A DNA stretch of 64,000 bases from the NCBI GenBank assembly GCA_017623235.1, contig JAGAPN010000033.1, forward strand, positions 13,725 through 77,724. Reading direction: 5' to 3'. Below the pieces are notes generated by a model. It saw only the letters and a program-made list of their open reading frames with translations. It had not been told where the DNA came from and ran no database searches. The translations under genes were made by a program, and so were the position numbers. The DNA is from Clostridia bacterium (GTDB lineage Bacteria; Bacillota; Clostridia; Oscillospirales; Acutalibacteraceae). Within the stretch, counting starts at the first letter, position 1. The number at the start of each line of letters is the position of its first letter. Below, piece after piece: positions 40,982 to 61,975 of this stretch.

Positions 40982-41713
40982 CTATTTCAGCTCCTTTGTG
41001 TGGAGGCCCGAGGTAGAAATAGGCTCGCCCCCTGCAAAAAGGTGGGAGGTATCACCTATACCTGCGAAAATTCCGTGGGCAATGGGGCGGTCGGCAATAT
41101 GCTTTTCCATATACAGGGTGGTCACCGAGGAGGGGGAGAGGTATATAGAATTCCACACCGCAATAAGGGGCATATTCATAACGTGGGCTATAAGTGAGGT
41201 GCCAAGACCAAAGTGACAGAAAAATGCAATTGTGTGGTCTTCCTCTTTACCGGGGGTTATCTCGTAAATATTACCTTTACGGTTATAGCCTCTGTCAGCA
41301 AGCAGTTTGTCAAACTCCCTGCAGTTGGACTGATAGGTTTCTACAATTCTGCTACCCTCTAAAAGCTTACTCCGATTCCAGCGTTCAATACTGAAAACGT
41401 CGGGGTCATCGGTCCAAAGCTCGGGGGGCATATTCCAGGGACTTTTCATATTTTTAAAATAGTCGGTGTCGTATTCCCAGTCCAGCATTGCGGGGAATTC
41501 CCTCAGCCAGTCCAGCACGGTGGGGGTGATGCCCAGAGCATCAGCGGTGGGCTTTGCAGTAAGTCGGGCCCTGCCATGGGGAGATACGAATATTTCGTCT
41601 ATCTTTTCGTTTCTTAGCTTTTCACCCAGCAAAAAGGCCTCGCGCTGACCCTTTTCGGTCAGGGAATCGGTAGGATAGTAGGGGTCGCCGTGGCGGATTA
41701 TAAGTATTCTCAT
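40982..41713 (-). CDS. Histidine phosphatase superfamily protein (phosphoglycerate-mutase-like branch)
   Basis: MRILIIRHGDPYY (RHG catalytic motif), GRARLTA, and a second His in FFCHFGLG. The start overlaps the upstream stop by 1 nt (TGATG). Confidence 0.8.
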   Translation of the reverse strand: MRILIIRHGDPYYPTDSLTEKGQREAFLLGEKLRNEKIDEIFVSPHGRARLTAKPTADALGITPTVLDWLREFPAMLDWEYDTDYFKNMKSPWNMPPELWTDDPDVFSIERWNRSKLLEGSRIVETYQSNCREFDKLLADRGYNRKGNIYEITPGKEEDHTIAFFCHFGLGTSLIAHVMNMPLIAVWNSIYLSPSSVTTLYMEKHIADRPIAHGIFAGIGDTSHLFAGGEPISTSGLHTKELK

Positions 41714-42666
41714 CAGTAGTCCTCTCCTTTATAAAAGGCTCTTGTCATAGCGTGGTTGCCTTCGCCGTCTACCACGTGCAGCAGTATGAATTTGCCTGTG
41801 CCGTCAATATCACAGCAGAGTTCACCTATCTCCTCCCCATCCGGAGCGTTTGCGGCGGCGGTGGCTCCGCTTTCGCTCAGCATAGCAATCTGCGCCGCAG
41901 GGGAGGTTTTGGCATAAAGTTTTCCGTCTTTTGTATAAGCCTCAAAAATCTGCGGTCCCGTAGAGCAGTATACGTCGCCCTTATCCATAGCGGCGATTAT
42001 CTCATCGTATTCCAGCCTGTCGGCCAAAATGTAGGTAAAGCCGCCGAAGGAATCGTTCTGCGGGTGGTCAAAGGGCAGGCAAAAGCTGTGGTTATCGTCT
42101 GCGCCAAAGGGGTAAAGTCTTTTTCCTCTGCGAAGCAGGTCAAGATAAATATCGGGTGTGAAGGAAAGGGCGCCGCCGAAATTGGCGGTAATGCAGTTAT
42201 AAAGCTCAAAACCGCTGACACCCTCTACCTGCATAAATTCGTCCTCGGTAAAAAGGGCCCAGTTGGGGTGGTTTATGGTAACGAAATAATTTTTTGCCCT
42301 GGCGTCGGCAATCATCTCGTTTATGTATTCCATACTGTAGTTTCTGGGGTTGCAGGGAACCTGCTGAAAATCGTCCGGATGACGGGAGATTATGTTAAAA
42401 TGAAAGGCCTTGCGTAGGTTAAAGGAGTTATCGCCCTGCTGGGCAACGTCCAGCTCGCAGGAGGTAAGGGGCAGAAAATCCTCATCGGCAAGGTCGCTGT
42501 GGCTTTGCACCTTAAGGTGGTCGGAAAAAGCAAATACCGAATAGCCTCTTGCCTTGTAGGCTTCTTTTAGCTCCTCCGGGGTCAGCCTGCCGTCAGAGCA
42601 GGTGCTGTGGGAGTGCATATTAGCCTTAAACTGCTTTTTTTTCGGAGAAATAAGGTAGTTTTTCAT
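41713..42666 (-). CDS. PHP-domain metal-dependent phosphoesterase
   Basis: KANMHSHSTCSDG (HxH), FAFSDH, TINHPNW, GADDNHSF. Confidence 0.75.
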   Translation of the reverse strand: MKNYLISPKKKQFKANMHSHSTCSDGRLTPEELKEAYKARGYSVFAFSDHLKVQSHSDLADEDFLPLTSCELDVAQQGDNSFNLRKAFHFNIISRHPDDFQQVPCNPRNYSMEYINEMIADARAKNYFVTINHPNWALFTEDEFMQVEGVSGFELYNCITANFGGALSFTPDIYLDLLRRGKRLYPFGADDNHSFCLPFDHPQNDSFGGFTYILADRLEYDEIIAAMDKGDVYCSTGPQIFEAYTKDGKLYAKTSPAAQIAMLSESGATAAANAPDGEEIGELCCDIDGTGKFILLHVVDGEGNHAMTRAFYKGEDY

Positions 42667-43553
42667 TACTTTGCACCCCCTGTTATATTTTCGGTAGAAA
42701 AGGCCACCGTATCGGCAAAACGGCCCTTTTCATCCCTTATATCCACCCTGATAAAGCTGCCGCAAAAGGCAGGGTCCAGGTCGAATACCGCCCGGGTTAT
42801 GGTTTCTCCCTTGGGGGCAATTGCTACGGGGGCATCACGGCCCTCGTTCAGCAGACGGATAGAGCGCACAGGGCTGCACTTTATGTGTATCTTGCCCTCG
42901 TCATAGTAAACCTCGTCAATAAGCGGACCTGTTGAGGCGTAAAATTCGCCGCCTTTAAGGGCAGAAAAAAGGTCCGATTTGGGGTTTATCATAGTAAAGG
43001 CCCCGAAGGAGTCGTTGTCGGGGTGAGAAAAATCCACGGCATTACGGTTACCGTCCACCGCTATGGGATAAAGAGGGGAGATGCCTTGGCGCAGCATACG
43101 GTCGTAAAGGTGATTGTTGTCTTCAATACATCCCGATTTTTGGGAGGAGTAATTTGTTATCTCAATAGCAAAAAGTCCGCGAAGGGCAGAATATTCACCG
43201 TAGGTCAGCATAGATTTTGCGGGGTGACACAGGCTTACCAGCCAGCCCGAAGCATTCGCACGGGCTATAAAAGCGTTGGGGTCCATTTCGTCCGAGGGGC
43301 TGACCTTCGGGGGTTCTGCCGCCTGCGCCTTATAAAGCATAAAGGTGAATTTGCCAATCTGCTGACGGTAGGCAAAAAGGGTAGAAAAGCCCTGGGGCGC
43401 CGCAATCTCGGCCTCTAACGCCAAAGCTCCGTAGCCCCTTTTATAATATTCCGCTATAGCCTCTTCGGGAGAAAGTCTGCCACCCGAGGATGCGGTAAGG
43501 CAGTTAAGATTAGCCTTTAAAAAACTGCGGCCGTTCTTTAACAGATATTTCAT
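42666..43553 (-). CDS. PHP-fold paralog with degenerate metal-binding motifs (probably non-catalytic, or with altered chemistry)
   Basis: Collinear with the neighbouring PHP protein, but HSH is replaced by NCL (KANLNCLTASSGG), SDH by EAE, and DDNH by DGNR. 1-nt stop/start overlap (TAATG) with the next gene. Confidence 0.6.
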   Translation of the reverse strand: MKYLLKNGRSFLKANLNCLTASSGGRLSPEEAIAEYYKRGYGALALEAEIAAPQGFSTLFAYRQQIGKFTFMLYKAQAAEPPKVSPSDEMDPNAFIARANASGWLVSLCHPAKSMLTYGEYSALRGLFAIEITNYSSQKSGCIEDNNHLYDRMLRQGISPLYPIAVDGNRNAVDFSHPDNDSFGAFTMINPKSDLFSALKGGEFYASTGPLIDEVYYDEGKIHIKCSPVRSIRLLNEGRDAPVAIAPKGETITRAVFDLDPAFCGSFIRVDIRDEKGRFADTVAFSTENITGGAK

Positions 43554-43724
43554 ATCCGCTCACTCCTTTTTTATAGAGCAATTATAACACCGAAACAATT
43601 ATATCACAAGTAATTATACCGCTTTATGTTTTAATAATATATCTCAATTTATAGGCAATATTGTGTATTCACTTTTTTGGAGAAATTTAGTATAATAAAG
43701 AAAAAATGACTTACGAGGTGCGTT

Positions 43725-46673
43725 ATGACCGAGAAGGAAATTATAAGAAATAAGGTTTTAGCCGAAAACGTTATCTATTATCAGAAGACCATAGCCGTCC
43801 TTTGTGATGAGCGCCCCGGCTTCGAAATTAAAGAGGCTCGCAGGGTTATAGCCCATTTAAGAGAGCAGGGCTACTACGTTCACGAAATAACGGTGGATGA
43901 TTTTTTAAAGGCCTTCAAGCATCATCTTGGCTTTTTGCTCATCATTCCCCACGCCTCGTCTTTGCCTGCCGTATGCTCGGGTAGACTGAATGATTTTGTG
44001 TCTACAGGCGGCTCTGTGCTGACCTTTGGCGGCGTACTTTTCGGTAAATACGTTGAAAAGGTTGACGGCAAGTGGACCGAAATTCCCCTGCCCGATAATA
44101 TATTTGATGCCGTTCATACAGGTGACGGCAGTAAGCCCAAGGCCGAGCCTATTGTTATCGAGGGAATAGTGCCTACCTATAAAACCTACCGCTGTAACGA
44201 TGCCGTAAAATTCACCTCTAACCCCTTATATACCTCTGCAAAGGTTGCTACCGATGAGGAGCTTCGTGTAGTTTGTCCCGTTGCCCGTCCCTACGGAGGC
44301 GGTTATAATATGGGCTATCGCAATCGTTATATCCCCATTACCACTATTGACGGCAAAAGTGACCGTGGTGACGGTAGCGAGGGCGCAGCCGCCTTTATGA
44401 TGCTCAGTGACACTGTGGGTCACGAGCCTACTACCAATATCGTATATGCAGGTACCGTAGGTCACACCAACCTGGGCTCGGTAGCCGCTAATATCGGCAT
44501 TATGCGCCAGGACCTTATGGATATTGAGGGTGTTCCACAGCTTATCACCGATATTGTTGATAGTTTCTGCCGCGGTCTGCACATCTTCTCGGCAGGTGCC
44601 GATAAGTTTACCTACTCCGATGGTGAGCGTGCCGTATTCGGCGCCTCGGTTCACAACTGTACCGTAGACTATAAGCCTGCCACAGTCACCATAACTGTCG
44701 AAAAGCAGGGCGAAGCGGTTTACTCCTACACCGAGGAACTGCTCTGCGCTCCCCTTGGCTATACCGACTGCACCTTTGCCTGCGAAGGCTTTAAGGCCGA
44801 TGAATATACCGTTCGCACAACCCTTTCCTTTGAGGGTGATATAATAGATACCACCGCCCAGGAAATACATAAAAAAGAGGTGGTAAAGGGTCACTTCCCC
44901 GAGGATTTCGTCAGGGTAGAGGGTGACAACTTTATGCTGGGCGACAAGGTCTGGTACCCCATCGGTATGAACTACTGGCCTCTTTATATGCCCGGCTTTG
45001 AGCGCTCTCATTACTGGCTCTGCTGGCTGGACAAGTCCAACTATATTCCCGAGGAGATAGAGAAGGACCTTGCTCTTATGGAAAAAATGGGCATCAACTG
45101 CCTGTATATGCGTATAGACGGTGACATCTTCCAGCGTCAGCGCTCCACCTTTGAGGATTTCCTTATCAGGTGCCGCCGCCACAATATGAAGCTCTGCTTC
45201 TCCTACTGCAATATTACCACCCCCAACCATTATAACGGTGCCGCCTTCAGAAAGCTGATGAAGGAATTTAACCTGCTGGATGACCCCATTATCTTCAGCC
45301 ACGATATTTCCTGGGAAACCGACGGCGGTTTTATGGCCACCCCTTATATTAAGAGGTATGATGAGGCTTGGCAGCAGTGGCTTATCGACCGTTACGGCTC
45401 GCTGGAGAACGCCGAGGCCGATTTTGGTATGAAGCTTGACCGCAGGGAGGACGGCGTTGTCACCTGCATTAACGAGTTCCTCTTCAAGGAGGAGGGGGAG
45501 TGGCGTGTTCAGGTAACCGCCTACCGCCGTTTTGAAGAAGACTATATGAGCAGGCTGTGGCGTGAGGCTATTGAGGATATCCGCCTGGTTGACCCCAAGC
45601 ACCTGGTTTCCTACCGCAGAGGTCCAATAGGCTCCTGGTGTAAGGACGTTAAGCCTGCCAGCAAGCACGTGGACTATAACAGCCACGAGGCCTATCATAT
45701 AACCCTGGGTGATGATGGCTACCACGAGGCCTGCGCCAATGCGGCCTACTTTGATATGATAAGCAAGAATAAGCCACTTATATGGTCGGAATACGGCCTT
45801 ACTCTTACGGGTATGAACCGCACTAACGACTTTGTGTGGGACCACGAAACCGAGCGTCCTATGGCCTTCCGTATGAAGATGACCGAGGATTATAATAAAC
45901 AGATGCAAAAGGCCTTTGCCCGTACAGGTGTCAAGGGTACCGCTCCCTGGTACTGGCCCGGCGGCCTTCGTATGGTGGAGATGAGCGACTGCGGCTACTG
46001 CGGTCCCGACGGCATTCTTCGACCATTTGGTAAGGATTACGCCAAGTTTATTTCCGAGTATTTCAGCAATCCCAATAAACCCACACCCGGAAAATATAGG
46101 GTTAAGGTAGATGTCGAGCAGGATGCCAGAGGTTACTTCAGTATGTTCCGTGAGCGTCTGGTTGAAGAGGACCGCAAGGCAGAGGAAATGGGCTGTATAT
46201 TGGAGCTTTATACCGACGGCACAGGCACCACCTCGGCAAACACCCCCCTTACCGCTGTGGGTAATATGCCCTATAACGGCAACAATCCTCCCAAGTTCTT
46301 AAACGGTGAGTTTAACCGCCTGACCCTCTTTGTAAACGGCACAGCTCAAAGGGTAGCCTACGGCTCCACAGTAAGGGTACCTGCAGGGGCCACCGTGGAG
46401 ATAGAGGCAAGCCTGGGCAACCTTAAGGATGCCACCTGGCTGAGCCCCTTAGGCTTTGAGGGTGACGGCGGCGTGTATATGGTATCTAACCCCGATTCCG
46501 ATATAGTGCTAAAGACCCCCATTTTAACCGACACCCCGTTCCTGGAGGATACCGTGACCCAAAAGACGGCAGTTTCCCTGCCCGCAGGGGAGAGCAAGGT
46601 AGCCCTTCGCCTCTCGGCTGAAAACCGTGCCGACTTCGGTGAGGTCTTCCGCTTTAATATCATAGCAGAATAA
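43725..46673 (+). CDS. Large (982 aa) cytoplasmic protein with a clan-GH-A-like (b/a)8 core, of unassigned family
   Basis: No signal peptide. FMLGDKVWYPIGMNYWP, EKDLALMEKMGINCLYMRI, FSHDISWETDG (candidate acid/base), KPLIWSEYGL (candidate nucleophile Glu). N- and C-terminal accessory domains. The family call is inference. Confidence 0.45.
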   Translation: MTEKEIIRNKVLAENVIYYQKTIAVLCDERPGFEIKEARRVIAHLREQGYYVHEITVDDFLKAFKHHLGFLLIIPHASSLPAVCSGRLNDFVSTGGSVLTFGGVLFGKYVEKVDGKWTEIPLPDNIFDAVHTGDGSKPKAEPIVIEGIVPTYKTYRCNDAVKFTSNPLYTSAKVATDEELRVVCPVARPYGGGYNMGYRNRYIPITTIDGKSDRGDGSEGAAAFMMLSDTVGHEPTTNIVYAGTVGHTNLGSVAANIGIMRQDLMDIEGVPQLITDIVDSFCRGLHIFSAGADKFTYSDGERAVFGASVHNCTVDYKPATVTITVEKQGEAVYSYTEELLCAPLGYTDCTFACEGFKADEYTVRTTLSFEGDIIDTTAQEIHKKEVVKGHFPEDFVRVEGDNFMLGDKVWYPIGMNYWPLYMPGFERSHYWLCWLDKSNYIPEEIEKDLALMEKMGINCLYMRIDGDIFQRQRSTFEDFLIRCRRHNMKLCFSYCNITTPNHYNGAAFRKLMKEFNLLDDPIIFSHDISWETDGGFMATPYIKRYDEAWQQWLIDRYGSLENAEADFGMKLDRREDGVVTCINEFLFKEEGEWRVQVTAYRRFEEDYMSRLWREAIEDIRLVDPKHLVSYRRGPIGSWCKDVKPASKHVDYNSHEAYHITLGDDGYHEACANAAYFDMISKNKPLIWSEYGLTLTGMNRTNDFVWDHETERPMAFRMKMTEDYNKQMQKAFARTGVKGTAPWYWPGGLRMVEMSDCGYCGPDGILRPFGKDYAKFISEYFSNPNKPTPGKYRVKVDVEQDARGYFSMFRERLVEEDRKAEEMGCILELYTDGTGTTSANTPLTAVGNMPYNGNNPPKFLNGEFNRLTLFVNGTAQRVAYGSTVRVPAGATVEIEASLGNLKDATWLSPLGFEGDGGVYMVSNPDSDIVLKTPILTDTPFLEDTVTQKTAVSLPAGESKVALRLSAENRADFGEVFRFNIIAE

Positions 46674-46674: not shown

Positions 46675-46709
46675 AAAAGAGCAACAGATTTTAAATCTGT
46701 TGCTCTTTT
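46675..46709. terminator. Bidirectional rho-independent terminator between convergent genes
   Basis: AAAAGAGCAACAGATTT t AAATCTGTTGCTCTTTT followed by extra T residues. It exactly fills the gap between the stop at 46673 (+) and the stop at 46711 (-). Confidence 0.85.
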
Positions 46710-46710: not shown

Positions 46711-48936
46711 TTATACGCCCTGTAAAAATCTTTCAACCACAAGCTGGCGGAAGCGCGGAGAAAGGGATGCAAAATATGCCGTAAAGCCGGTTACCCGTAC
46801 CACCAAATCGGGGTGCAGGGTGGGGTCCTTGTGGGCCTCCATCAGTTTTTCGGTATCCAGCACGTTTATGTTTATAAGGGTGCCGCCATTTTCAAAATGG
46901 CTCTTTATAAGGGTGGAAACTATCTCTACACCATTTTCATCCTCGGCAATTTGGGGGTCAAACTCCAGCTGCAGGGGAGCGGTGTTGCCCCAGCCGCACT
47001 GTACGGCGGCAATACCGTTGGATTGGGCGGTAACGGCGCCGTCATTTCTGAAATGGGGGTTGGGATTTGCGCCGTGGGATATGGGCTCTCCCGTTCTTCT
47101 GCCGTTAGGAGTAGCCCCTACGGCGGAGCCGTATTCGATGGTTCTCGCCCAGGAAAACCAACCGGGAATAAGCTGTCTGCCCTCGGGCATAGGTGTAGAT
47201 TTTATCTTTTCTACCCAGCAATCGGTAAGGCGCTTTGCCCAGCGGTCGGCAGGGGTGTTTCCGCCGCAGTATTTGGGGGCAGAATTCAGCATCAGCCTTA
47301 TTCTTTCTCCCATAACACCATCAAAATTATTATCAAGACAGGTGAAAACCTCATCCCAGGTCAGCGCCTTTTCGTCTTCAACCCTCTGCTCCAATGCGCC
47401 GAAGGAGTCGGCTACAACCGCCAGACCCGCCCCGTCAACGCCTACGGTATAGAGCTTGGCGCACCTTGAAATATCAAGGCCCTTTTCCAAGGTGTCCTCC
47501 ATCATCAGGTTCATAATAAGCTCGGGGGTAACCTCTGCCTGGTGGTCAATATGCAGGTTGATTCCTGCCGCAGTAACCTCTGCCGCCTTTTCAAGATGAC
47601 GGCCGAAAATATCAAATAGCCTCTCGGTAGAGGGCCGGCCGCCCTCTTGGCGCATTGTTTTGATAGATTGCTCCAGCACCTTGGCCACGTTTATCTTTAC
47701 GGTGTCGTTCATAGGAAACTCTATACCCGGCACGCACATCCAGTTACAGCCCACCGCTATTCGCCGCCTTGCAATTTCCTTGGTAACGCCAAGGTTTCGC
47801 ATATATCCCTCGGATAAATTTTTGTCCGAGCAAAATCTGGGCCAGGCATTTTTATTTTTAAGCAGATAATATACCGCTTTTCTGAAAAATTCCTTATCGC
47901 AGTTCTCGTGATACCGTACCGTGATATTGGCCGAAATGTTTATCTGGTCGCAGGCGTCAAGTATAAGGTAGGAAAGGTGATTGGTAAGGTCACGGTCCTC
48001 CGCATCAACACCCGATACCTGGTAGTAGTGGGGGTCAATAAGCAGTAGATTGGCTATAAGGAATTTGGCCTTCTCATCATCTAAAATACCTGCCTCAAGG
48101 TCCCTTTTATAGTAGGGATAAAGCAGGGTATCCAGCTGAAAGCCTGCGCCGTCACGGGTATATATTCGGGATGCAATATTAAAGTAGGCTACCCATTGGC
48201 AGGCCTCGTAAAAGGTTTTCGGCGCCGCAAGACGGATGCTGCGGTTTACCTCCAGCATTTCCTCAAGGCTTGCTTTAATTTCCGGTCTGGCTTCTGCCTT
48301 AATAAGCCGTTCTATTTCTTCAATATTTCGCTCTATAAAGCGGATTATTGCCTTAACGCACTTTTCTTCCGCATCATAGAAATCGGCCTTGTCGGGGTTA
48401 ATTTTGCGGTATTTTTCTATTTTTTCAAGAAAACCGCCAAAGCCCAACCCCAGGCCTATAGAATAGTCGCAGGCCAGGTGGGCGTCGCCGTCAATACCCG
48501 TCTGAATATTATAAAACTTCTGCAGGGGCTTTAGATGGTCGTAGGGGAAATTCTTCTCATCCCACCGCTTGCTCCATTGGTTGGTAACCCCCGTCAGGTC
48601 CTCGTCCTTTAGCTGGGCCTTGCGCCATTTTGGCATATAATGCAGGTCACCGCGGTAGTTTACCAGCATATCACGCCAGCGGCCGCACAGCAGCTCCATA
48701 GGGTCAACGTAAGGGGGGTGGGCATCCATAACTCGGCAGAAATTTTCACTCATACCGTCAAGACAGTAAAAGCTGCCGTTTTCCGAGTTAAACCAAGGCT
48801 CCACCCTGTAGCCCTCGGGCAGGGGAACGGTGCCGAAATCATCCAGGTCGGTATAACCGTTCTGCTCTAATTTATCCAGGGTGTGCTGTATTTTAGTTTT
48901 TCTTATGGCTGATATTCTGTCCTTATAGGTCAGCAT
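46711..48936 (-). CDS. Glycyl radical enzyme (PFL-fold), 741 aa, function unknown (GRE2)
   Basis: C-terminal DLVVRVTGFTAYFASL (Gly717, codon 46786-46788). Thiyl loop RRIAVGCNWMCVPG (Cys397 codon 47746-47748, Cys401, no Glu at +2). Other blocks are TFYEACQWVAYFNIASR, GATPNGRR and GGTLININVLDTEKLMEAHKDP. Confidence 0.85.
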   Translation of the reverse strand: MLTYKDRISAIRKTKIQHTLDKLEQNGYTDLDDFGTVPLPEGYRVEPWFNSENGSFYCLDGMSENFCRVMDAHPPYVDPMELLCGRWRDMLVNYRGDLHYMPKWRKAQLKDEDLTGVTNQWSKRWDEKNFPYDHLKPLQKFYNIQTGIDGDAHLACDYSIGLGLGFGGFLEKIEKYRKINPDKADFYDAEEKCVKAIIRFIERNIEEIERLIKAEARPEIKASLEEMLEVNRSIRLAAPKTFYEACQWVAYFNIASRIYTRDGAGFQLDTLLYPYYKRDLEAGILDDEKAKFLIANLLLIDPHYYQVSGVDAEDRDLTNHLSYLILDACDQINISANITVRYHENCDKEFFRKAVYYLLKNKNAWPRFCSDKNLSEGYMRNLGVTKEIARRRIAVGCNWMCVPGIEFPMNDTVKINVAKVLEQSIKTMRQEGGRPSTERLFDIFGRHLEKAAEVTAAGINLHIDHQAEVTPELIMNLMMEDTLEKGLDISRCAKLYTVGVDGAGLAVVADSFGALEQRVEDEKALTWDEVFTCLDNNFDGVMGERIRLMLNSAPKYCGGNTPADRWAKRLTDCWVEKIKSTPMPEGRQLIPGWFSWARTIEYGSAVGATPNGRRTGEPISHGANPNPHFRNDGAVTAQSNGIAAVQCGWGNTAPLQLEFDPQIAEDENGVEIVSTLIKSHFENGGTLININVLDTEKLMEAHKDPTLHPDLVVRVTGFTAYFASLSPRFRQLVVERFLQGV

Positions 48937-52621: not shown

Positions 52622-52632
52622 CGTTATCTCCT

Positions 52633-54986: not shown

Positions 54987-56267
54987 TTATTTTTCTTCGT
55001 AGTAATCCTTCTTTTCAAAGGTAAGTCTTTCAAGATTTTTTGGGGCATCGCCGAAATCGGGAACCTCAATGGGCAGTCCGTCCTTCATAGCCGACTCGTG
55101 GGCTATAATTCCGGGGATGATGTATCTTGCCGAATCCCAGGCGTTATTGGGGGGCAGCTTGTTTGCTACCACCGCTCTCATAAAGTCGTCCACCAGGAAG
55201 GGGTGAGAGTTGTAGTGAACGGTATCGGGGCAGCTTCTGAATGCCAGGGGCAGACGGTCAACGTCGTGAATAGGGGCGAAGCCTCTGTGAGCAGGCTCCG
55301 AAATGGGGTAGGTGTTTATCGCAAAATCGGGAGCCTTGGAGGTCTTTGTATAGGTGTTGGTGTTCAGCAGGTCGCTGACGTAATCAATTCTTGTATCGTC
55401 CACACCTGCTGCGGTACCCTTTATAAGCACGTGCTGGGTAACCGAGCCCTCGTAGCCACCCTTGTCGCCGTAAAGGCAGGTTATGTAGGAGGAGGGCTTG
55501 TGGGGGATACCTGCGCGGCGGAACTCATTAATTCTGGCCACACCGCCGCCCGACATCTGCATAAGGGCGGTTTCATTACTGAAGGGGTTATCCCAATTAT
55601 TTTTACCCTTGCCGAAAACACCGTCCTCGTGGTTATCTCGGTAGCCCATACAGCTTACCTTGGTAACGTGCTCGTCTATAACCGAGGTAATCATAGAAAT
55701 AGAATGGGTGGAGTAGTACATAGGAGGAATACCTGCAACCCTCTTCCAATCCTTGCCGCCTGAGTGGGCAAAGGCGTAGTAGAAGGTGGCCATATCGTGG
55801 TAATACTGGCTTTCTCCGTAAACAAATTTACCGAGCAGTCCTTTGCGGTAAACATCACGGCAGAAGATAGCGCAGGGGAAGTAGTAGCAGGTTTCACCTG
55901 TCATATAAACCATACCCGTGCGCTTTACTGCTTCAATAATTTTCCCCATATCCTCAATATCCGAAGCCATAGGCACGGCGCTGAAAACGTGCTTGCCTGC
56001 ATTAAGGCAATCCACCGCCATACTGCCGTGGAGGTGACGCTGTGTAAATATTGCCACACAGTCAACGTCCTTGCCCTCACGCAGCACCTCTTCAAGGGAG
56101 TGGAATATTCGGCTTATACCGTGTTTCTTGGCGGCGGCATCGCACCTTTCGGGTACAATGTCGGCTACCGATACCTCAGCCACGTCGGGATGGCTTTTAA
56201 AAAGGGGAATAAAAAAGTCGGAAAACTCTCCTAAACCCACTATACAAACCTTATGCTGCTTTGACAT
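54987..56267 (-). CDS. Gfo/Idh/MocA-family oxidoreductase (426 aa form)
   Basis: MSKQHKVCIVGLGEFSDFF Rossmann start. I prefer the ATG at 56267 (RBS GAAAGAAGG) over the TTG at 56285. It is the first gene of the - strand operon that ends with GRE2. Confidence 0.65.
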   Translation of the reverse strand: MSKQHKVCIVGLGEFSDFFIPLFKSHPDVAEVSVADIVPERCDAAAKKHGISRIFHSLEEVLREGKDVDCVAIFTQRHLHGSMAVDCLNAGKHVFSAVPMASDIEDMGKIIEAVKRTGMVYMTGETCYYFPCAIFCRDVYRKGLLGKFVYGESQYYHDMATFYYAFAHSGGKDWKRVAGIPPMYYSTHSISMITSVIDEHVTKVSCMGYRDNHEDGVFGKGKNNWDNPFSNETALMQMSGGGVARINEFRRAGIPHKPSSYITCLYGDKGGYEGSVTQHVLIKGTAAGVDDTRIDYVSDLLNTNTYTKTSKAPDFAINTYPISEPAHRGFAPIHDVDRLPLAFRSCPDTVHYNSHPFLVDDFMRAVVANKLPPNNAWDSARYIIPGIIAHESAMKDGLPIEVPDFGDAPKNLERLTFEKKDYYEEK

Positions 56268-56333
56268 ATAAAAACCTTCTTTCAAAGAATAAATCTTTCC
56301 AAATATAATATATCATATAAGGAGCGATTGTTA

Positions 56334-56370
56334 AATGGACAAAACGGTATTTTTTGCATATAAAACGGTA
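56334..56370 (-). promoter_or_regulatory. Two phased direct repeats (AAAACGGTA, 21-bp spacing) in the divergent promoter region between the oxidoreductase operon and the AraC gene. Candidate operator.
   Basis: AATGGACAAAACGGTA (56334-56349) and GCATATAAAACGGTA (56356-56370). Both longer strings recur identically at 63736-63751 and 63780-63794. On the - strand the proximal repeat abuts a TTGTCC -35-like hexamer. Confidence 0.6.
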
Positions 56371-56405
56371 GTAGCGGCGGCTCTGCTTGACAAAGGCAAA
56401 ATTAT

Positions 56406-57260
56406 ATGATAAAAATAAAATATAAAAAACGTCGGGAGGTGCCTGAAATAAATATCTATGACAGCATTTTCAGCCTGCCTGAAAATGAGTTTTTCGTGGG
56501 AGATTTTGCCGCCGTCCGCAAGGAGATTATTCCTCCCGCACATTTCAAATGCCATAAAAATCTGGTGCTTTATCAGCGGTTTGTATATGTAGTAAAAGGT
56601 ACTTTTATCTTTAACGATGAGGTGCATAAAAACGTAAGATTTGAGCCCGGGGATATCATTTATCTTCCCTCCGACGTGGTTTATGAATCCTATTGGGAGA
56701 AGGACGAGATAGGGGAGTTTATTTCACTTAATTTCTGCCTTTACGACCCCTTGCATAATAATATAAATCTTTTTGACGACTTGGTGCTGGCCTGTAAAGA
56801 CCCCGACCGAAAGCTTTTCTCGGTGTTTGACGAGGTCCAGGAAATCTGGAATAAATCTGCCAGAGGCCATAAGCTGCAGTGTATATCCCATCTTTATGCT
56901 CTGCTTTACCGTATAGGCAAATATTCCTTACGACTTGAAGAAGGCAGTAAAAACGCCATATCAAAGGCGGTTATATACCTGGAAAATCACTTTTTAAACG
57001 ACGTCACCGTGGAGGACCTGGTAAAGCTTACCAACGTGGGAGAGTGTCAGTTTAGGCGAAGCTTTAAGGCCCTTAAGGGAATGTCACCCATAAAGTACCG
57101 CAATATGCTTAGGATGACCAAGGCCATAGACCTGCTTAAAACGGGGGAGTATTCGGTTGTGGAGGCCTCTATGATAGTAGGCTTTGATGACCCTTCATAT
57201 TTTTCCAAGCTTTTTAAAAAACAGTTTGGCCAGAGTCCTTCGAGTTATATACCGCAATAA
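56406..57260 (+). CDS. AraC/XylS-family transcriptional regulator
   Basis: N-terminal cupin-like sensor region. C-terminal double HTH VEDLVKLTNVGECQFRRSFKALKGMSPIKYRNMLRMTKAIDLL...VVEASMIVGFDDPSYFSKLFKKQFGQSPSSY. Confidence 0.85.
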   Translation: MIKIKYKKRREVPEINIYDSIFSLPENEFFVGDFAAVRKEIIPPAHFKCHKNLVLYQRFVYVVKGTFIFNDEVHKNVRFEPGDIIYLPSDVVYESYWEKDEIGEFISLNFCLYDPLHNNINLFDDLVLACKDPDRKLFSVFDEVQEIWNKSARGHKLQCISHLYALLYRIGKYSLRLEEGSKNAISKAVIYLENHFLNDVTVEDLVKLTNVGECQFRRSFKALKGMSPIKYRNMLRMTKAIDLLKTGEYSVVEASMIVGFDDPSYFSKLFKKQFGQSPSSYIPQ

Positions 57261-57295
57261 AAAAGGGAGAAGATTCACCGAATCTTCTCCCTTTT
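57261..57295. terminator. Bidirectional rho-independent terminator
   Basis: AAAA GGGAGAAGATT caccg AATCTTCTCCC TTTT, between the AraC stop (57260) and the rhaM stop (57300). Confidence 0.85.
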
Positions 57296-57299: not shown

Positions 57300-57617
57300 T
57301 TATCTGAAACTGAATACCTGCCGCATTAAAGGCTGGGCACCCGTTTCGGGGTCAAGCTCCATTACCATAATGTCGGCCATATATTCATTCCAGCGGTCAA
57401 CCACAGCGCTTTCACGTTGAACCCGTGCGGCGTGGTCGACCCCTTTTTCACATTCGTAGTATCCGAAAAGGTCGTTACCTGAGTTCCAAATACTATAGTT
57501 TACTATACCGGCCTCGGTAAGCACCGCCTTCATTTCATCCCACAGGGCATCGTGACGGCGTATGTATTCATCCAGACAGCCTTCCTTTACGGTTGCCTTC
57601 CAAGCATATTTTTCCAT
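57300..57617 (-). CDS. rhaM: L-rhamnose mutarotase
   Basis: 105 aa. YAWKATVKEGCLDEYIRRHDALWDEMKAVLTEAGIVNYSIW...LFGYYE...RWNEYM matches the RhaM/YiiL family pattern. Confidence 0.8.
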   Translation of the reverse strand: MEKYAWKATVKEGCLDEYIRRHDALWDEMKAVLTEAGIVNYSIWNSGNDLFGYYECEKGVDHAARVQRESAVVDRWNEYMADIMVMELDPETGAQPLMRQVFSFR

Positions 57618-57626
57618 AAATATACC

Positions 57627-58967
57627 TTATTTCAGCTTATCAAGCACGTCGTTGGTGCTCTTAACGGCGGCATCTACCAGGTTAGAATACTCGTTAAGCT
57701 TGGTGGATGCATTGGCGGGCTTTGCATTGATGATGCTGGCGTTGATGTGAATACCACCCTTACCGATATCGTCGGTGATAAGGCCGCAATCATAATTTAC
57801 GTACATATTTTCGGCCTTCATAAGAGCCTCGTGAACGTCCAGCATAGTGGGGTCACAGAAGAAGGTGTTCTTATCATAGTTTTCAGAGTCGAGGTAGTAG
57901 CGGAGGAAGAAGGGTGCAAGGCTTCCACAGGGAGCGCCCTGGGGAATAGCGTAAGCCTCTACCTCGGACCAAACTGTTGCATTGGTACCGCCGTCAATGG
58001 TGGGGAAGGGAACAGCAGCAAGAGCGCCCTGTGCCTTTAAGGACTTCCAATAGAAATGAGTACGGCGAACGCTGATAAGCGACTCTGTGAAGAAGAGAAT
58101 TTTGCCGTTTTCAAAGTTGTTGATATCGAAACGGATGTTGTTGGTGATGCCGTCCTCTCTGAGCTGGCACATCTTCTGCCAACCCTTTAAGAGGTTGGGG
58201 TCGCTCATATTGGAAACGAAGCGGTCACCCTCACGCTTAATCATAGCAGAACCGTAAGCATCGCCTGCGTCGGCCCACTGGTAAGAGGTCCAGGGCAGGT
58301 AGGTGTCGTCATCAACCTCTTCCTTGAAGGTCTTGCAGATTTCCTCAAACTTTTCCCAGTTCCAGTTGCCTTGCTTCCAGAGAGAGTAGGGGTCTTCAAG
58401 GTCAAAACGGTTTATAAGATTTTTGTTGTAAAGAAGTGCGCGGGGCTGCTGAAGCAGGGTGTTGCGCATATTGGTGCCGTAGGTTTTACCGTCAAAGGTG
58501 TAGAAATCCATAATACGGGTATCCCAGGCCTCGTCGGTGAAATCAAAATCAATGTTCTGCAGGGGCTCAAGCACACGGATAAGACCTGTGTCGATGCGCA
58601 TAAGTCTTACGATGTCAGGGGAGTCCTGAGAAGCAACACGGGCGGCAATTTTGGTAGAATATTCGTTGTAGCTGCCCTTTACCCATTCGATTTTAATGCC
58701 TGTTTCGTTCTCAAACTGCTCAACAACGTCTACTGCGCCTGTAACGTCGGTAAGGTCGTTCCAAGAGAATACCTCAATGGTCTTGCCCTTGGCATCTGCA
58801 GGAATTTTGGCCTTGATTTCCTGCCAGCCTGCATTATTGGCAGAGTTGCCGGTATTGTTGCCCGAGCTTCCGGTGTCGGAGCTGTCGCCGTTTCCGCCAC
58901 AGCCAGCAACGGTGAATACCATAGCTAAAGCCAGAAGAAGACAGATAAGTTTAGATGCGATTTTCAT
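57627..58967 (-). CDS. ABC transporter substrate-binding lipoprotein, orphan paralog of 22301..23665
   Basis: Lipobox FTVAGCGGNGDSS. Extensive shared blocks with the 454-aa SBP. No permease genes adjacent. Confidence 0.8.
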   Translation of the reverse strand: MKIASKLICLLLALAMVFTVAGCGGNGDSSDTGSSGNNTGNSANNAGWQEIKAKIPADAKGKTIEVFSWNDLTDVTGAVDVVEQFENETGIKIEWVKGSYNEYSTKIAARVASQDSPDIVRLMRIDTGLIRVLEPLQNIDFDFTDEAWDTRIMDFYTFDGKTYGTNMRNTLLQQPRALLYNKNLINRFDLEDPYSLWKQGNWNWEKFEEICKTFKEEVDDDTYLPWTSYQWADAGDAYGSAMIKREGDRFVSNMSDPNLLKGWQKMCQLREDGITNNIRFDINNFENGKILFFTESLISVRRTHFYWKSLKAQGALAAVPFPTIDGGTNATVWSEVEAYAIPQGAPCGSLAPFFLRYYLDSENYDKNTFFCDPTMLDVHEALMKAENMYVNYDCGLITDDIGKGGIHINASIINAKPANASTKLNEYSNLVDAAVKSTNDVLDKLK

Positions 58968-59068
58968 TTGTGTTCCTCCTTGAAATTTATATTATAATGA
59001 TAAAACATTTAAGGACCCTGTTCAAGTTATAATAATGCTGAATTATATAACAAAATCATTCTAAAATA

Positions 59069-61975
59069 TTAATATACGCTTATTTTCAGCACGCTGGCGC
59101 CTGCTACACCGCCCATATAAGAGCCGCCTACTATGTATTGGGGAATGGTAAGAGGGGTAACCCCGTCTTCGGCGTACTTTGTAACGTATTTCTTGGCGGA
59201 GGCATCATAGGTGGTGGCCAGAATCTCGGAATAGAAGTTGTTGTGAACGTGACCGCAGAAGATGCCCTTTATAACCTCGGGGTTAGAGGCGATAAGGTCA
59301 AATACCTTGGCGGTATAGTTTTCCGAGGGACCCTTTGCATCGGAGCCACGCTTAATATAATAGTTATTTTCACCCATAGCGCCTGCCTCACTATCGGGCA
59401 TTGCAGCGCCGTAGCCGGTGTTGAAGGGCACAAATTTGGGGTAGGCCTCGTTATAGGTGTTCATAGGAACGTGCTGGAAAATAAGTATGGGCACGCCGCT
59501 TTGCTTGCAGTCTGCAATATCGGCGCTGAGCCTGTTATAAATGTTGCTGTTATCCTGGTATTTTACCGCCTGGTTATCCATAACAACAATCTTTACCTGC
59601 TTGTCACCCTTGGTGATAACCTCGCTGTGGTAGTAGATGTCGTTGGGCCAGAAATCGCTGTTCAGCTTCTGATATTTATAGTTCTGGGTAAACATTTCTC
59701 TGAAGCCGTTTGCCTTGGATACCTTGGCAAAAAGCTCGGCGGTTTCGTGGTTGCCCAGGGCAATCAGCAGATTATTATTAATGGAGCGGTCTATCAGCAA
59801 CTTTTTAGAAAGCTCAGCAGTACCGTAGGAGAAGTAGTCCATAATATCGCCGATAACAACGGTTTTGTCATAAAAACTACCGAATTCCATCAGCTTTGCG
59901 GAGTTGGCAACACTGCCGAAGCCCTTGTCAACACGGCCCATATCACGGGACACAACAGAGGTTTTACCATCCTTGTCGGTAACCTCCACGCCGAACCATT
60001 GAGCGTTTACGGATGGGTTGTTAAGAAGGGTATCCATCTTATTATAATAGTTAAAGTGAATGTCCGAGAAGGCAGCGATTTCAATAGGTGTGCCGCCCTG
60101 TGAGCTGTCACCGATAACGATATCCCTTACCAGCATATTATTCTTAAGCAGATAAGCGGCGTGGTTGGGGTCACGGTCGGTTTGGCTGTCGGGGGCGTTG
60201 GGGCCGGTAAGCCAGGCAGAAAAGGCGAACCCGCCGTTACCTGTGGTCTTGTCGATAATGCGCTGGCCCTCAACGTAGGTGATAATGGTGTTGCAAAGCG
60301 CACCGGCCTCGTCACCCAGAGCCTCTTTTTCGGCAAGAGCCGTCTTGTAAAGGCTGGTGGTGAGGTAATCGGTGTAAAGAACTCTGGCCACACCGTTTAT
60401 GTCGGTGTACTCGGCATAGCCCTTTACGGTATAGAATTTATAATACTTATCCTTTGTAAGCTGTTCGATAGAATCGGTGATACAAAGGGTGTACTGCTCG
60501 GCTGTAGAGGAGCGGGCGTAGATGTTGGCGGCCGCTACCTTTTTGGGGGAATAGGAGGGGGTGATACTACGGTCTACCACGTGGGCAGAGGATATTTCCA
60601 TATCGGTGCCGCCCGAATAATTGGTAGGCATATAAATTGCGCCGAAGCTCACGCTTCCTACCGCTGATTTTAAAGCGGCTTCAAATTTGCGGTTCTTTTC
60701 GAAGATGATGCGCAGGCCCTGCTTATCGACGCTGTCGGAAACAGCTCGAAGCTCGGTGCCCTTTATGCAGAAATCACTCTCGGCAAAATCCACGTACTTG
60801 GCGTAAAGGATATCTCCTGTCTTGAATTCGCCCGAGCTTACGGCCTTGCCGTTTTTATCGGTCCAGCCTACAAAAAGCTTGCCCTCGGGGTCAAAATAGG
60901 TAAGCTCTGCAAAATTAAGGTTGGTATCCTTCTTTACCTTAATTTCCTTGCCGCCGTTTAAATATTCAATATCGGAATCGGGGAAGGTAACGCTGTATTT
61001 ACCATAGCTGTTAAGGGCAAGCTCCTTGGAAACCGATTCCAGCATTTCGCCTACCGAGGATACGGCCACAGCCTCGTTGTCACCGACCACCTTAAATACA
61101 CCTCTGGTGTCGGTAATCTCCAGATAAGATGCGCCTTTTTCACAGCTCATTACATAAACTCCTTCCTTTGCAGTAAGGGTTTCGGAAATTTCATACAATC
61201 TGTACATTCCGTTGTTGTACAGCAGGGTAACAGCTCCCTCAAACACAGGGGTCTTACCCTTGGTGGTGTAATACATATTGCCAACCTCGGCGCCGATGGT
61301 AAGGTTAAGGTCACCTGTAAAGGTAACGCCGCCGCTGGCGTTGGCGCCTAAAATAAGGTTGGAAAGAGCCGCATTACCCGAAATATTTATGTTGGCGTTG
61401 CGGACCGTAATATCGCTCGCAGAGGTGGAGCCTACGTATATCGAGCCGTAGCTGCCGCCCAGTAGGGTAAGGTTAATATCCTTGCCGCTGACGTCGGCGC
61501 CTGCGTCTATGTTAAGGGAATAGGAGGCAGAACTCTTGGTAACCCCCTCGCCGCAGGTAAGGGGATAGCCTGCAGTGCCAAGAAATACCCAGGTATTGCC
61601 TGCAACACCTGCGCAAAGGCTGATGTCCTCAAATACGGTGGGTCCGCCCAGCAGTATGTTTTTTGTGTAGTGGAAGGTAGCACCCTCACCGGTAAAGGTT
61701 ATTTCCTTGGTGTGGGAGGGAATATTTTCCGATACCGTCAGGGTACCTGCAACCACTATACAGCCCTTATCGTCGGTAGAGCCATCTATGGCGGTTACGG
61801 CCGAGGCAAGGCTGTTAAAAGGTGAGGCAGAGCTGCCGTCACCATCGGTAGCGGCCGAGGTATCAAGATAGACGGTTAGGCAGGTTTTTGTTGTATCATT
61901 GGCAAAGGCAGAGGTGGAAAATACCGATACGATAAGGCAAAGGGTCAGTATTACTGCTATAATTATTTGTTTCAT
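59069..61975 (-). CDS. Secreted 968-aa protein: N-terminal beta-helix/adhesin-like repeats and a C-terminal calcineurin-like metallophosphoesterase domain
   Basis: Signal peptide MKQIIIAVILTLCLIVSVFSTSAFA. Metallophosphatase motifs occur in order at ~59200-60090: AAFSDIHF (DxH), VIGDIMDY (GD), ALGNHE, IFQHVP, CGHVHNN (GHxH). Confidence 0.75.
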   Translation of the reverse strand: MKQIIIAVILTLCLIVSVFSTSAFANDTTKTCLTVYLDTSAATDGDGSSASPFNSLASAVTAIDGSTDDKGCIVVAGTLTVSENIPSHTKEITFTGEGATFHYTKNILLGGPTVFEDISLCAGVAGNTWVFLGTAGYPLTCGEGVTKSSASYSLNIDAGADVSGKDINLTLLGGSYGSIYVGSTSASDITVRNANINISGNAALSNLILGANASGGVTFTGDLNLTIGAEVGNMYYTTKGKTPVFEGAVTLLYNNGMYRLYEISETLTAKEGVYVMSCEKGASYLEITDTRGVFKVVGDNEAVAVSSVGEMLESVSKELALNSYGKYSVTFPDSDIEYLNGGKEIKVKKDTNLNFAELTYFDPEGKLFVGWTDKNGKAVSSGEFKTGDILYAKYVDFAESDFCIKGTELRAVSDSVDKQGLRIIFEKNRKFEAALKSAVGSVSFGAIYMPTNYSGGTDMEISSAHVVDRSITPSYSPKKVAAANIYARSSTAEQYTLCITDSIEQLTKDKYYKFYTVKGYAEYTDINGVARVLYTDYLTTSLYKTALAEKEALGDEAGALCNTIITYVEGQRIIDKTTGNGGFAFSAWLTGPNAPDSQTDRDPNHAAYLLKNNMLVRDIVIGDSSQGGTPIEIAAFSDIHFNYYNKMDTLLNNPSVNAQWFGVEVTDKDGKTSVVSRDMGRVDKGFGSVANSAKLMEFGSFYDKTVVIGDIMDYFSYGTAELSKKLLIDRSINNNLLIALGNHETAELFAKVSKANGFREMFTQNYKYQKLNSDFWPNDIYYHSEVITKGDKQVKIVVMDNQAVKYQDNSNIYNRLSADIADCKQSGVPILIFQHVPMNTYNEAYPKFVPFNTGYGAAMPDSEAGAMGENNYYIKRGSDAKGPSENYTAKVFDLIASNPEVIKGIFCGHVHNNFYSEILATTYDASAKKYVTKYAEDGVTPLTIPQYIVGGSYMGGVAGASVLKISVY

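Follow-up and report, generated by a model that had tools for sequence, protein, structure and literature searches.

In Bacillus subtilis, wall teichoic acid is degraded by both GlpQ and PhoD (PMC7086022). Rhamnose-rich wall polysaccharides combine rhamnose and galactose with phosphodiester links and polyol phosphates, including glycerol-phosphate (PMC8327497), and in the human gut a sugar-specific phosphodiesterase of Clostridia, GlcNAc-PDase, removes phosphodiester-linked groups from glycans (PMC10704324). A limited literature search found no description of a phosphoesterase-bearing Gram-positive glycan locus, and no degradation locus for phosphate-bridged glycans described in gut Firmicutes. 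Here we consider a group of phosphoesterase genes in a 64,000-nucleotide stretch of DNA (the window; GenBank assembly GCA_017623235.1, contig JAGAPN010000033.1, positions 13,725 to 77,724) from an Acutalibacteraceae member of the Clostridia. An initial annotation had proposed that phosphoesterases of four folds serve to depolymerize a phosphodiester-linked heteroglycan there, with GlpQ and PhoD as precedent. The precedent is sound, and the proposal is upheld in part: a conserved phosphoesterase group is tied to glycan genes, whereas its GDPD-like member has lost catalytic residues and one of its two PHP proteins is a probable pseudoenzyme. We suggest that the region at 40982-63699 is a conserved module under AraC control through which an uncultured gut Oscillospirales bacterium processes phosphate esters as part of glycan utilization, with Gram-positive wall glycopolymers as the likeliest source, and give this reading a probability of about 40%.

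RESULTS

Organization and conservation of the phosphoesterase region

Genes and families were assigned from the open reading frame (ORF) listing and from Pfam and NCBIfam scans, according to which the window holds carbohydrate-utilization genes nearly throughout. The four phosphoesterase folds initially described are real and correctly placed, within a region (40982-63699) that comprises five transcription units. Unit A (minus strand) encodes a degenerate PHP-fold paralogue (PHP', 42666-43553), an intact PHP protein (41713-42666) and a histidine phosphatase (40982-41713), and unit B (plus strand) a 982-aa protein (43725-46673). Unit C (minus strand) runs from a GFO/IDH/MocA (GFO) oxidoreductase gene (54987-56285) and the GDPD-like gene (52633-54969) through genes for a xylose-isomerase-like TIM protein, two further GFO enzymes and a glycyl-radical activase to a glycyl-radical enzyme (46711-48936). 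An AraC-type regulator (56406-57260, plus strand) forms unit D, and unit E (minus strand) consists of a LamG/CBM-dockerin protein (61990-63699), the metallophosphoesterase (59069-61975), a binding protein (57627-58967) and rhaM (57300-57617). The units are bounded by divergent promoter-like sites (43581-43696 and 56305-56416) and by strong bidirectional terminators (46675-46709 and 57261-57295). The initial annotation had overlooked the genes for the glycyl-radical, GFO and TIM enzymes that lie between the phosphoesterase parts.

The secreted gene set is strongly conserved. Genes for the AraC regulator, the GDPD-like protein, the LamG/CBM-dockerin protein, the metallophosphoesterase and the binding protein recur as an operon in the related loci L004, L032, L001/L003 and L034, with protein identities of 52-60% in diverged gut Oscillospirales. 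In each context read, the metallophosphoesterase gene stands directly after the LamG/CBM-dockerin gene and before the permease-less binding protein gene. L032 represents a minimal form, in which these five genes are followed by unrelated ones. In L004, the trio of histidine phosphatase, PHP and PHP' genes and a gene for a 986-aa GH42-like protein abut the secreted operon with no genes between, the glycyl-radical block being absent, and the proteins are 49-75% identical to those of the window. The trio is also kept in L006, L007 and L011, and its linkage to the secreted operon is present in two independent lineages; L007 moreover repeats the junction seen in the window of the trio with SASA, GH36, rhamnosidase-like and DUF5696 genes. 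The trio is carried by metagenome-assembled genomes from the hindguts of ruminants and from Hadza people, which belong to uncultured Oscillospiraceae, Acutalibacteraceae and 'Eubacteriales'. Since the linkage recurs in diverged genomes, the grouping of the phosphoesterases is not due to chance.

Locus L002 is without the GDPD-like gene; encoded nearby (L002 1-2678, minus strand) is a 1160-aa protein in which repeated N-terminal domains of no known family precede a clear dockerin and an ENPP-type domain (PF01663, ENPP/alkaline-phosphatase superfamily). Upstream in L034 are a 259-aa Sulfatase/Phosphodiest fragment and a DUF4838 gene.

Secreted metallophosphoesterase

The 968-aa product of 59069-61975 (minus strand) begins with what resembles, by eye, a Sec signal peptide, followed by a beta-helix-like scaffold, a Listeria-Bacteroides-type repeat and a calcineurin-like catalytic domain at approximately residues 620-968. 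Pfam Metallophos (PF00149) matched at 30.2 bits, above its cut-off of 21.5 (and at 33.7 bits when the domain was scanned by itself), and all five motifs of the family (D638-x-H640, GD710-x-x-D713, GN742H743E, H835 and GH909-x-H911) are present, as the initial annotation had it, and invariant across 10 homologues. These 10 were all that a word-indexed search found, indicating that such proteins are rare. PF00149 was the sole Pfam match even at E <= 5; no PhoD-like phosphatase domain was found, and the protein is not assigned to the PhoD type. An NCBIfam scan and PDB searches by phmmer and by profile gave no match.

An AlphaFold model of the catalytic domain alone (predicted local distance difference test, pLDDT, 62; predicted template modeling score, pTM, 0.70) gave 32 PDB matches in Foldseek at E <= 1e-3, with metallophosphoesterases on top. 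The best fold matches were SMPDL3A/B, acid sphingomyelinase, GpdQ, Rv0805 and Lmo2642, and then purple acid phytases; most are phosphodiesterases, and 5'-nucleotidase-like folds were also matched. The full-length model was poor (pLDDT 54), the N-terminal beta-helix alone being confident, and a viral-structure search with the AlphaFold model of the protein returned nothing at E <= 1e-3.

The gene is swapped whole as an allele (window 59069-61975 versus L034 11692-14526 and L003 3074-5908). Its flanks in L034 (GCA_045579465.1) are 95-100% DNA-identical to the window, with 100% amino acid identity for the binding protein, AraC and GFO and 99% for the GDPD-like protein, whereas DNA identity falls to 53-72% exactly across the metallophosphoesterase ORF. 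The two allelic proteins (944 aa in L034 versus 968 aa) are 56% identical to each other, and both are 52-62% identical to the eight remaining known homologues.

GDPD-like protein and its clade

The second secreted protein (778 aa, 52633-54969, minus strand) carries LamG-like, CBM-like and dockerin-like parts and a non-canonical GDPD-like domain (nt 52636-53412) that extends from about residue 520 to the C-terminus. A signal peptide and two EF-hand-like dockerin repeats (DYDANGDTLFDIRD and DTNKNGSVDAED, residues 465-505) are visible. The window protein has no Pfam dockerin match; P0073, 66% identical to it, passes PF00404 (24.0 versus 22.9), and a PDB search with the LamG/CBM-dockerin region of the window gave only weak matches to dockerins (E = 0.24-1.1). 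Pfam GDPD (PF03009) matched residues 541-652 at 51.8 bits against a cut-off of 23.6, covering only profile positions 9-112 of 244, and the GDPD of T. tengcongensis (PDB 2pz0) matched at E = 1e-9. The initial description of a secreted GDPD-like domain stands for the fold and the visible signal peptide, and the carrier is dockerin-like by its repeats; as a correction, a catalytic His and one metal-binding Glu of the domain are lost.

Catalysis by GDPD enzymes is said to need two His plus Glu, Asp and Glu (PMC10194240). GlpQ has His43, Arg44, His85 and a Ca site; its two His are regarded as general acid and base, and the phosphate is held by residues matching the lost His and the kept Arg and His of the window domain (PMC7086022). 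In the alignment of 2pz0 with the window, AHRG corresponds to GYRP, PENT to PQQS, ELDV to LCDV and HD to HD. The first of the two His of GlpQ/UgpQ-type enzymes is thus Tyr, and ExD, which supplies acidic ligands, reads L-C-D; the second catalytic His, the Asp of ExD and a later Glu (HLELK) are retained. GYRP, LLCDV, HD and HLELK are invariant in six orthologues, among which the domain is the best-conserved portion of the protein. With a His and a metal ligand lost, the domain may bind instead of cleave, and its residues make catalysis doubtful.

An exhaustive search with the domain collected a clade of 1,680 representatives at E <= 1e-10, of which the best 155 were used for residue counts. Among these, the Arg of HRG is unconserved and ExD is LxD in half, while the Asp, the His-Asp and the Glu-x-Lys are nearly invariant and the 'PENT' Glu is mostly kept. 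Many clade members have tail-fibre-like N-termini without a signal peptide, and four of four such members sampled matched tail-fibre or minor-tail PHROGs. When the nearest 70 members were compared with PHROG, a 'phosphodiesterase' family was matched by 65, a virion structural family by 61 and a tail-fibre family by 40, and tblastn against phage genomes matched tail, neck or 'GDPD' genes in phages of Lactobacillus, Lactococcus, Weissella and Staphylococcus. The neck protein of Lactococcus phage 340 has an aromatic substitution like that of the window domain; the domain of phage Ld17 retains AHRG, ExD and HD. The baseplate protein of this Lactobacillus delbrueckii phage is reportedly, going by the title of a 2016 report by Cornelissen, an active glycerophosphodiesterase. 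A literature search on 'neck passage structure' with GDPD found nothing.

P0075, a metagenomic protein of 1273 aa, joins a duplicated copy of the beta-helix/repeat scaffold of the metallophosphoesterase to an aromatic-variant GDPD-like C-terminus, the two scaffolds being 33% identical over about 400 aa (E = 2e-41). Because the metallophosphoesterase scaffold also bears a GDPD-like domain in P0075, the two 'warheads' are interchangeable on one carrier.

Cytoplasmic PHP pair and histidine phosphatase

Unit A had been credited with cytoplasmic PHP phosphoesterases at 41713-43553, and this holds for one of the two. The 317-aa protein (41713-42666, minus strand) is a predicted cytoplasmic, CehA/McbA-like, metal-dependent hydrolase of the PHP superfamily, with intact HSH, SDH and DDNH motifs and the ligands H18/H20, D49/H50, H133, D190 and H193. 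Its 295-aa paralogue PHP' (42666-43553, minus strand; 31% identical) has NCLT for HCHS and DGNR for DDNH, the DH segment is deleted, and even a permissive Pfam scan gave no match. These ligands are lost in the window, L004, L006 and L007 and intact in the counterparts of L009-L011. Given the loss, the window has one intact PHP and a probable non-catalytic partner. The C-terminal domain of PHP' (KCSPVRSIRLLNEGRDAP...) is very highly conserved among the copies compared (window 42666-43553, L009 8928-9974, L010 5062-6099 and L011 8834-9979), which suggests an obligate PHP/PHP' pair.

The last gene of the operon (40982-41713, minus strand) encodes a cytoplasmic branch 1 histidine phosphatase of 243 aa, as initially annotated: it scored 59.1 bits against a cut-off of 21.7 for Pfam His_Phos_1, and its R7-H8-G9, R48/R50, the Glu of LDWE and the His of FCHFG align to PhoE (1ebb).

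Directly upstream of PHP'-PHP and on the same strand, L009 (7784-8902) and L010 (3813-4991) have a glycolipid glycosyltransferase gene of the monogalactosyldiacylglycerol (MGDG) synthase/UgtP type, and an ORF of similar length occupies the equivalent position in L012 (26-1150). In L006, the trio lies beside a histidine-biosynthesis operon; the two are convergent, and we judged the association incidental.

Ties to the glycan-utilization genes

The first visible gene of unit E (61990-63699, minus strand) encodes a secreted 569-aa protein with LamG-like, CBM4_9-like and dockerin-like parts, a paralogue of the N-terminal part of the GDPD-like protein (48% identity to residues 1-519) without a Pfam or NCBIfam match. 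The CBM-like region is common to these two proteins, a secreted 2008-aa GDSL esterase (14979-21005, plus strand) and a 772-aa dockerin-like protein without an assigned function (25265-27583, plus strand): residues 457-653 of the esterase match residues 187-418 of the GDPD-like protein at 33%, and residues 534-771 of the 772-aa protein match its residues 266-520 at 28.5%. Permissive Pfam scans of both N-terminal scaffolds and of the 772-aa protein gave no match. The esterase and the 772-aa protein have about 700 aa in common, and the latter ends in a dockerin-like repeat.

The 446-aa lipoprotein (57627-58967, minus strand; lipobox VAGC, Pfam SBP_bac_1/8) is a solute-binding protein of the CUT1 sugar type whose gene has no adjacent permease genes. 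It is 62.6% identical to a 454-aa binding protein (22301-23665, plus strand) of the upstream beta-helix/GDSL operon, which does have permeases (14027-14938 and 21068-22009, plus strand). Its weak matches are oligosaccharide-binding proteins, on which ground a UgpB-like role in binding glycerophosphodiesters was rejected. The 105-aa product of rhaM (57300-57617, minus strand) belongs to the L-rhamnose mutarotase family by Pfam (86.9 bits) and scored 54 against TIGR02625, below the cut-off of 99.6. The AraC-type regulator has a cupin sensor domain, is divergent from the operon with the GFO and GDPD-like genes, and keeps its position across related loci.

The predicted cytoplasmic 982-aa protein of unit B may be an unclassified clan GH-A glycosidase, possibly GH42-like: its 43 homologues (29-95% identity) share an invariant E531 and E689, and its similarity to GH42 and GH5 is marginal. 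L026 has a 47%-identical copy in one operon with lactonase, Eda, KdgK, SDR, UxuA, SASA, rhamnosidase-like, binding-protein, permease and Yip1 genes. Three relatives (P0040, P0048 and P0050) are fused to a GDSL esterase domain. The shared CBM-like modules, the paralogous binding protein and this GH42-like enzyme tie the phosphoesterases to the glycan genes.

Other genes of the window and of related loci

In unit C, the 432-aa GFO oxidoreductase (54987-56285) is the first gene of the operon that includes the GDPD-like gene, and the TIM protein (51851-52681), two GFO oxidoreductases (50785-51858 and 49695-50792), the glycyl-radical activase (48923-49702) and the glycyl-radical enzyme (46711-48936) follow, all on the minus strand. 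NCBIfam gave no assignment for any of the three GFO enzymes, nor for the TIM protein, the glycyl-radical enzymes and the binding proteins: IolG scored 54 bits for the 432-aa GFO and was the best match, at 107 bits, of the 357-aa one (GFO357), against a cut-off of 355, and the nearest families of the TIM protein are hydroxypyruvate and oxo-tetronate isomerases, not IolE/IolI. Polyol, inositol or 3-keto-glycoside catabolism may be candidate functions of these genes. With its listed GTG start, the TIM gene shares 49 nt with the 3' end of the GDPD-like gene; as orthologues have 253-256 aa, translation probably begins instead at the Met of residue 21.

Two divergent glycyl-radical enzymes (30813-33566 and 46711-49702, each span including its own activase), 24% identical to each other, lie inside glycan operons without microcompartment genes and score far below all NCBIfam equivalog cut-offs. 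One (GRE1) has only 660 aa, a Cys loop AAC330WE and the glycine motif RIWGW; the other (GRE2) has VGC397NWMC, with no Glu two residues past the Cys, and RVTGF.

Within 1155-40944, all on the plus strand, are further genes for a lactonase, a KdgK-like kinase, an SDR protein and UxuA, a 938-aa binding protein with two permeases, a Yip1/TPR membrane protein, a DUF5696 protein, three beta-helix proteins, the first glycyl-radical enzyme with its activase, a second DUF5696 protein, a rhamnosidase six-hairpin protein, a GH36 protein and an SASA esterase. The neighbors initially named (SASA and GDSL esterases, GH36, the rhamnosidase six-hairpin protein, three beta-helix proteins, rhaM and three binding proteins) were all seen. 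The alpha-galactosidase is present insofar as a GH36 protein is encoded (37866-39947), but its sole NCBIfam match is a beta-L-arabinopyranosidase model, at 163 bits far under the cut-off of 1100. The locus has the sugar-type binding proteins, permeases, sugar-responsive regulator, glycosidases and esterases of a Gram-positive ABC-type glycan locus. The 938-aa binding protein (5037-7853) has an N-terminal extension of about 500 aa with a faint CBM35 match, and a literature search on DUF5696 found nothing.

A cytoplasmic beta-lactamase-fold protein (about 490 aa, SxxK near residue 61) recurs beside the module in L004 (1570-3048 and 18233-19702), L007 (12648-14132), L011 (12929-14638) and L034 (8392-9858), adjoining an AraC regulator gene in L007, L034 and, for the second copy, L004. 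A role as FmtA-like teichoic-acid D-alanyl esterases was rejected for these proteins, which have no signal peptide. A GFO-EamA gene pair recurs in L004 and L034; the window region has neither this pair nor the beta-lactamase-fold gene.

DISCUSSION

A phosphodiester-containing glycoconjugate is a reasonable substrate class for the module. In the reading that we favor, the CBM-like and dockerin-like modules would hold the secreted proteins on a polymer with phosphodiester bridges or phosphodiester-linked decorations. The metallophosphoesterase would be the main cutter, as its set of catalytic motifs is complete and phosphodiesterases are nearest to it in fold, and the GDPD-like domain would recognize, or perhaps cleave through an altered mechanism, a phosphate-polyol or phosphate-sugar unit. 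The 446-aa protein could then capture the freed phospho-oligosaccharides, which would enter the cell by way of the permeases that belong to the paralogous upstream system. In the cytoplasm, the GH42-like enzyme might trim them, the PHP protein and the histidine phosphatase would dephosphorylate them, and the resulting sugars or polyols would pass to the GFO, TIM and glycyl-radical enzymes. Support comes from the interchange of phosphoesterase domains (P0075 and the ENPP-type protein of L002) and from the sugar-type AraC/cupin regulators. The likeliest source would be teichoic-acid-type or rhamnose-rich Gram-positive wall polysaccharides with phosphodiester links, because the phage relatives of the GDPD-like clade infect Gram-positive hosts and because rhamnose-rich wall polysaccharides bring together rhamnose, galactose, phosphodiesters and polyol phosphates (PMC8327497).

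Several observations weigh against this reading. The GDPD-like domain is without the general-acid His (HRG to YRP) and one Ca-binding Glu (ExD to LCD), and of the 155 nearest clade members, 146 have an aromatic residue in place of the His of HRG (Y 89, W 43 and F 14). The metallophosphoesterase model is of low confidence (pLDDT 62), with template modeling (TM) scores of 0.4-0.58 to its fold matches. The intact PHP protein falls slightly under both cut-offs (Pfam 26.3 versus 26.4; NCBIfam CehA/McbA 73.7 versus 80), and a PHP fold is not always a phosphatase, NCBIfam naming the CehA/McbA proteins metallohydrolases; PHP' is degenerate, its HxH/DH/DxH ligands being lost. In L006, L007 and L011, none of the secreted genes lies within 10 kb of the trio, and the glycan system of L026 is without phosphoesterases in the 23 kb seen. 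Lastly, plant arabinogalactan or pectin would account equally well for GH36, the rhamnosidase-like protein, the dockerins and the uronate genes.

The loss of catalytic residues raises an alternative that is compatible with our reading and that we hold tentatively, as a serious candidate: the GDPD-like domain may be a catalytically dead, lectin-like module for a phosphate-containing wall polymer, only the metallophosphoesterase being a cleaving enzyme. The aromatic residue at the His of HRG, the unconserved Arg and the LxD in half of the clade would be expected of such a module, as would a domain that is better conserved than the remainder of its protein and is borne on tail-fibre-like proteins without a signal peptide. 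The paralogue at 61990-63699 has the same scaffold with the enzyme domain absent, and the Ld17 domain, active by title, is one that keeps AHRG, ExD and HD. On the other hand, the near-invariance of the Asp, the second His-Asp and the Glu-x-Lys, with the 'PENT' Glu kept in most members, looks like a preserved active site, the Tyr could assume the role of acid or nucleophile, and the exchange of this domain with Metallophos and ENPP domains suggests an enzymatic role.

The fold matches of the metallophosphoesterase also allow a different substrate. Glycosylinositol phosphoceramide (GIPC) sphingolipids and glycosylphosphatidylinositol (GPI) anchors have inositol-phosphate-ceramide bridge chemistry. 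Were the substrate a plant or fungal glycoconjugate of this type, such as GIPC or the GPI/ceramide anchors of arabinogalactan proteins, the metallophosphoesterase and a domain of the GDPD/phosphatidylinositol-specific phospholipase C (PI-PLC) fold would cut the bridge, glucuronic acid would enter the uronate pathway, and inositol or inositol phosphate would go to the phosphatases, GFO and TIM enzymes. SMPDL3A/B and acid sphingomyelinase are the top fold matches, the three GFO/IDH/MocA enzymes and the xylose-isomerase-like TIM protein resemble inositol-catabolic sets (with IolG best for GFO357), and UxuA, KdgK, SDR and lactonase genes are in the window and co-operonic with the 982-aa enzyme in L026. 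GH36 is nearest a beta-L-arabinopyranosidase, and the bacteria concerned live in the gut of herbivores and of Hadza people. However, we consider such a substrate unlikely: the matches fall far under family thresholds (IolG 107 versus 355 bits; TM about 0.4 for the folds), isomerases other than IolE/IolI are nearest to the TIM protein, and the relatives of the GDPD-like domain are phage tail fibres with Gram-positive hosts. No lipid-handling or ceramidase gene was seen, and rhaM and the acetylesterases would be left unaccounted for.

It is equally improbable that the module scavenges phosphate or small phosphodiesters (glycerophosphodiesters, nucleotides or nucleic acids) and that the glycan genes are mere neighbors. 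The GDPD, metallophosphoesterase, PHP and histidine phosphatase families do include nucleotide and glycerophosphodiester enzymes, the fold matches comprise GpdQ, Rv0805 and 5'-nucleotidase-like proteins, and L002 has a gene of the inosine-uridine nucleoside hydrolase family nearby, as well as its ENPP-type protein. Sugar-type regulators and binding protein disfavor this explanation: no Pst or Pho regulator was seen, the regulators being of AraC/cupin sugar types, and the binding protein is of the oligosaccharide type, unlike UgpB or PstS, with a 63% identical paralogue in a glycan operon. Moreover, the LamG- and CBM-like modules of the secreted proteins also occur in a carbohydrate esterase, and the GH42-like enzyme is co-conserved.

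Remodeling or recycling of the producer's own wall polymers by the secreted proteins, in the manner of the autolytic teichoicase WhyD or of GlpQ/PhoD, is very improbable, for while GDPD-domain hydrolases of a cell's own wall polymers are known (PMC7086022 and PMC9208761) and a UgtP/MGDG-synthase-type glycosyltransferase gene is upstream of PHP'-PHP in L009 and L010, the context is catabolic (binding protein, AraC regulators, GFO, TIM and glycyl-radical enzymes), esterases of the degradative operon also carry the CBM-like modules and the dockerin-like tether, and a metallophosphoesterase that is cassette-swapped between near-identical strains fits variable external targets better than housekeeping.

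Should phosphate-bridged glycans indeed be the substrate, the module would give strictly anaerobic gut Firmicutes a defined genetic means of harvesting them, whether teichoic acids, rhamnose-rich wall polysaccharides, phosphomannans or inositol-phosphoceramide glycolipids. It would also provide a function for a large unrecognized GDPD-like clade, with more than 1,600 representatives in phage tail fibres and secreted bacterial proteins, as well as reagent enzymes for the analysis of phosphodiester-linked glycans and a genomic marker of wall turnover in gut metagenomes. A bolder version, which is conceivable and which we regard as doubtful, is that an operon for a surface-tethered 'phosphoglycan depolymerase' lets fibre-associated gut Oscillospirales feed on the phosphodiester-linked wall polymers of Gram-positive neighbors and that the allele swap of the metallophosphoesterase tracks variable polymer types; the aromatic GDPD-like clade, common to these bacteria and phage tail fibres, would in that case form a new functional class for such polymers, be it a dedicated module for recognition or an altered-mechanism enzyme. 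If the substrate is an ordinary one, the locus is still a well-delimited set of families without an assignment: the GH42-like 982-aa enzyme, two divergent glycyl-radical enzymes and DUF5696.

Comparison with known systems

Like GlpQ and PhoD of B. subtilis, the module pairs a secreted GDPD-fold protein with a putative phosphodiesterase of a second fold, its wall-polymer target being our inference. Unlike GlpQ, the window domain has Tyr at the position of His43 and Leu at that of one Ca ligand, and unlike PhoD, the second enzyme is calcineurin-like and has no match to the PhoD family in Pfam. The two systems also differ in setting, as AraC sugar regulators, a catabolic locus without visible Pho elements, and CBM-like and dockerin-like modules distinguish the locus described here.

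The phage GDPD tail, baseplate and neck proteins (Tal of Ld17, the neck passage structure of Lactococcus phage 340, and PHROG 13515, 16048 and 16641) likewise carry the domain at the C-terminus of a long targeting scaffold. They are the nearest non-orthologous relatives of the window domain, and their hosts are teichoic-acid-bearing Gram-positive bacteria. The aromatic residue of the window domain and of the phage 340 protein sets both apart from Ld17, which has the canonical AHRG and ExD, and in contrast to the phage proteins the window carrier is cellular, bears a signal peptide and dockerin-like repeats, and is encoded within a catabolic operon.

The metallophosphoesterase has the five-motif, binuclear-metal fold of GpdQ (Enterobacter aerogenes), Rv0805 and the acid sphingomyelinase/SMPDL3 proteins, its best structural matches, all of which are phosphodiesterases. 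It differs from GpdQ, Rv0805 and SMPDL3 in that sequence similarity is undetectable, in large insertions within the domain and in a 600-aa scaffold of beta-helix and repeats. The GlcNAc-PDase of gut Clostridia has yet another fold, that of the endonuclease/exonuclease/phosphatase superfamily, and was obtained as a single enzyme through functional screening, with no comparable operon known (PMC10704324).

With Gram-positive ABC-type polysaccharide loci, including cellulosome-linked ones, the locus shares binding proteins, permeases, AraC regulators, esterases, glycosidases and dockerin-like tethers; it departs from them in its conserved set of phosphoesterase folds and its two divergent glycyl-radical enzymes. 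Teichoicases of the GDPD and metallophosphoesterase folds, phage GDPD tail proteins and Gram-positive glycan loci are each already known, and what is new is their conserved combination in a dockerin-linked catabolic operon of uncultured gut Oscillospirales, together with the clade in which His is replaced by an aromatic residue and the phosphoesterase set of four folds.

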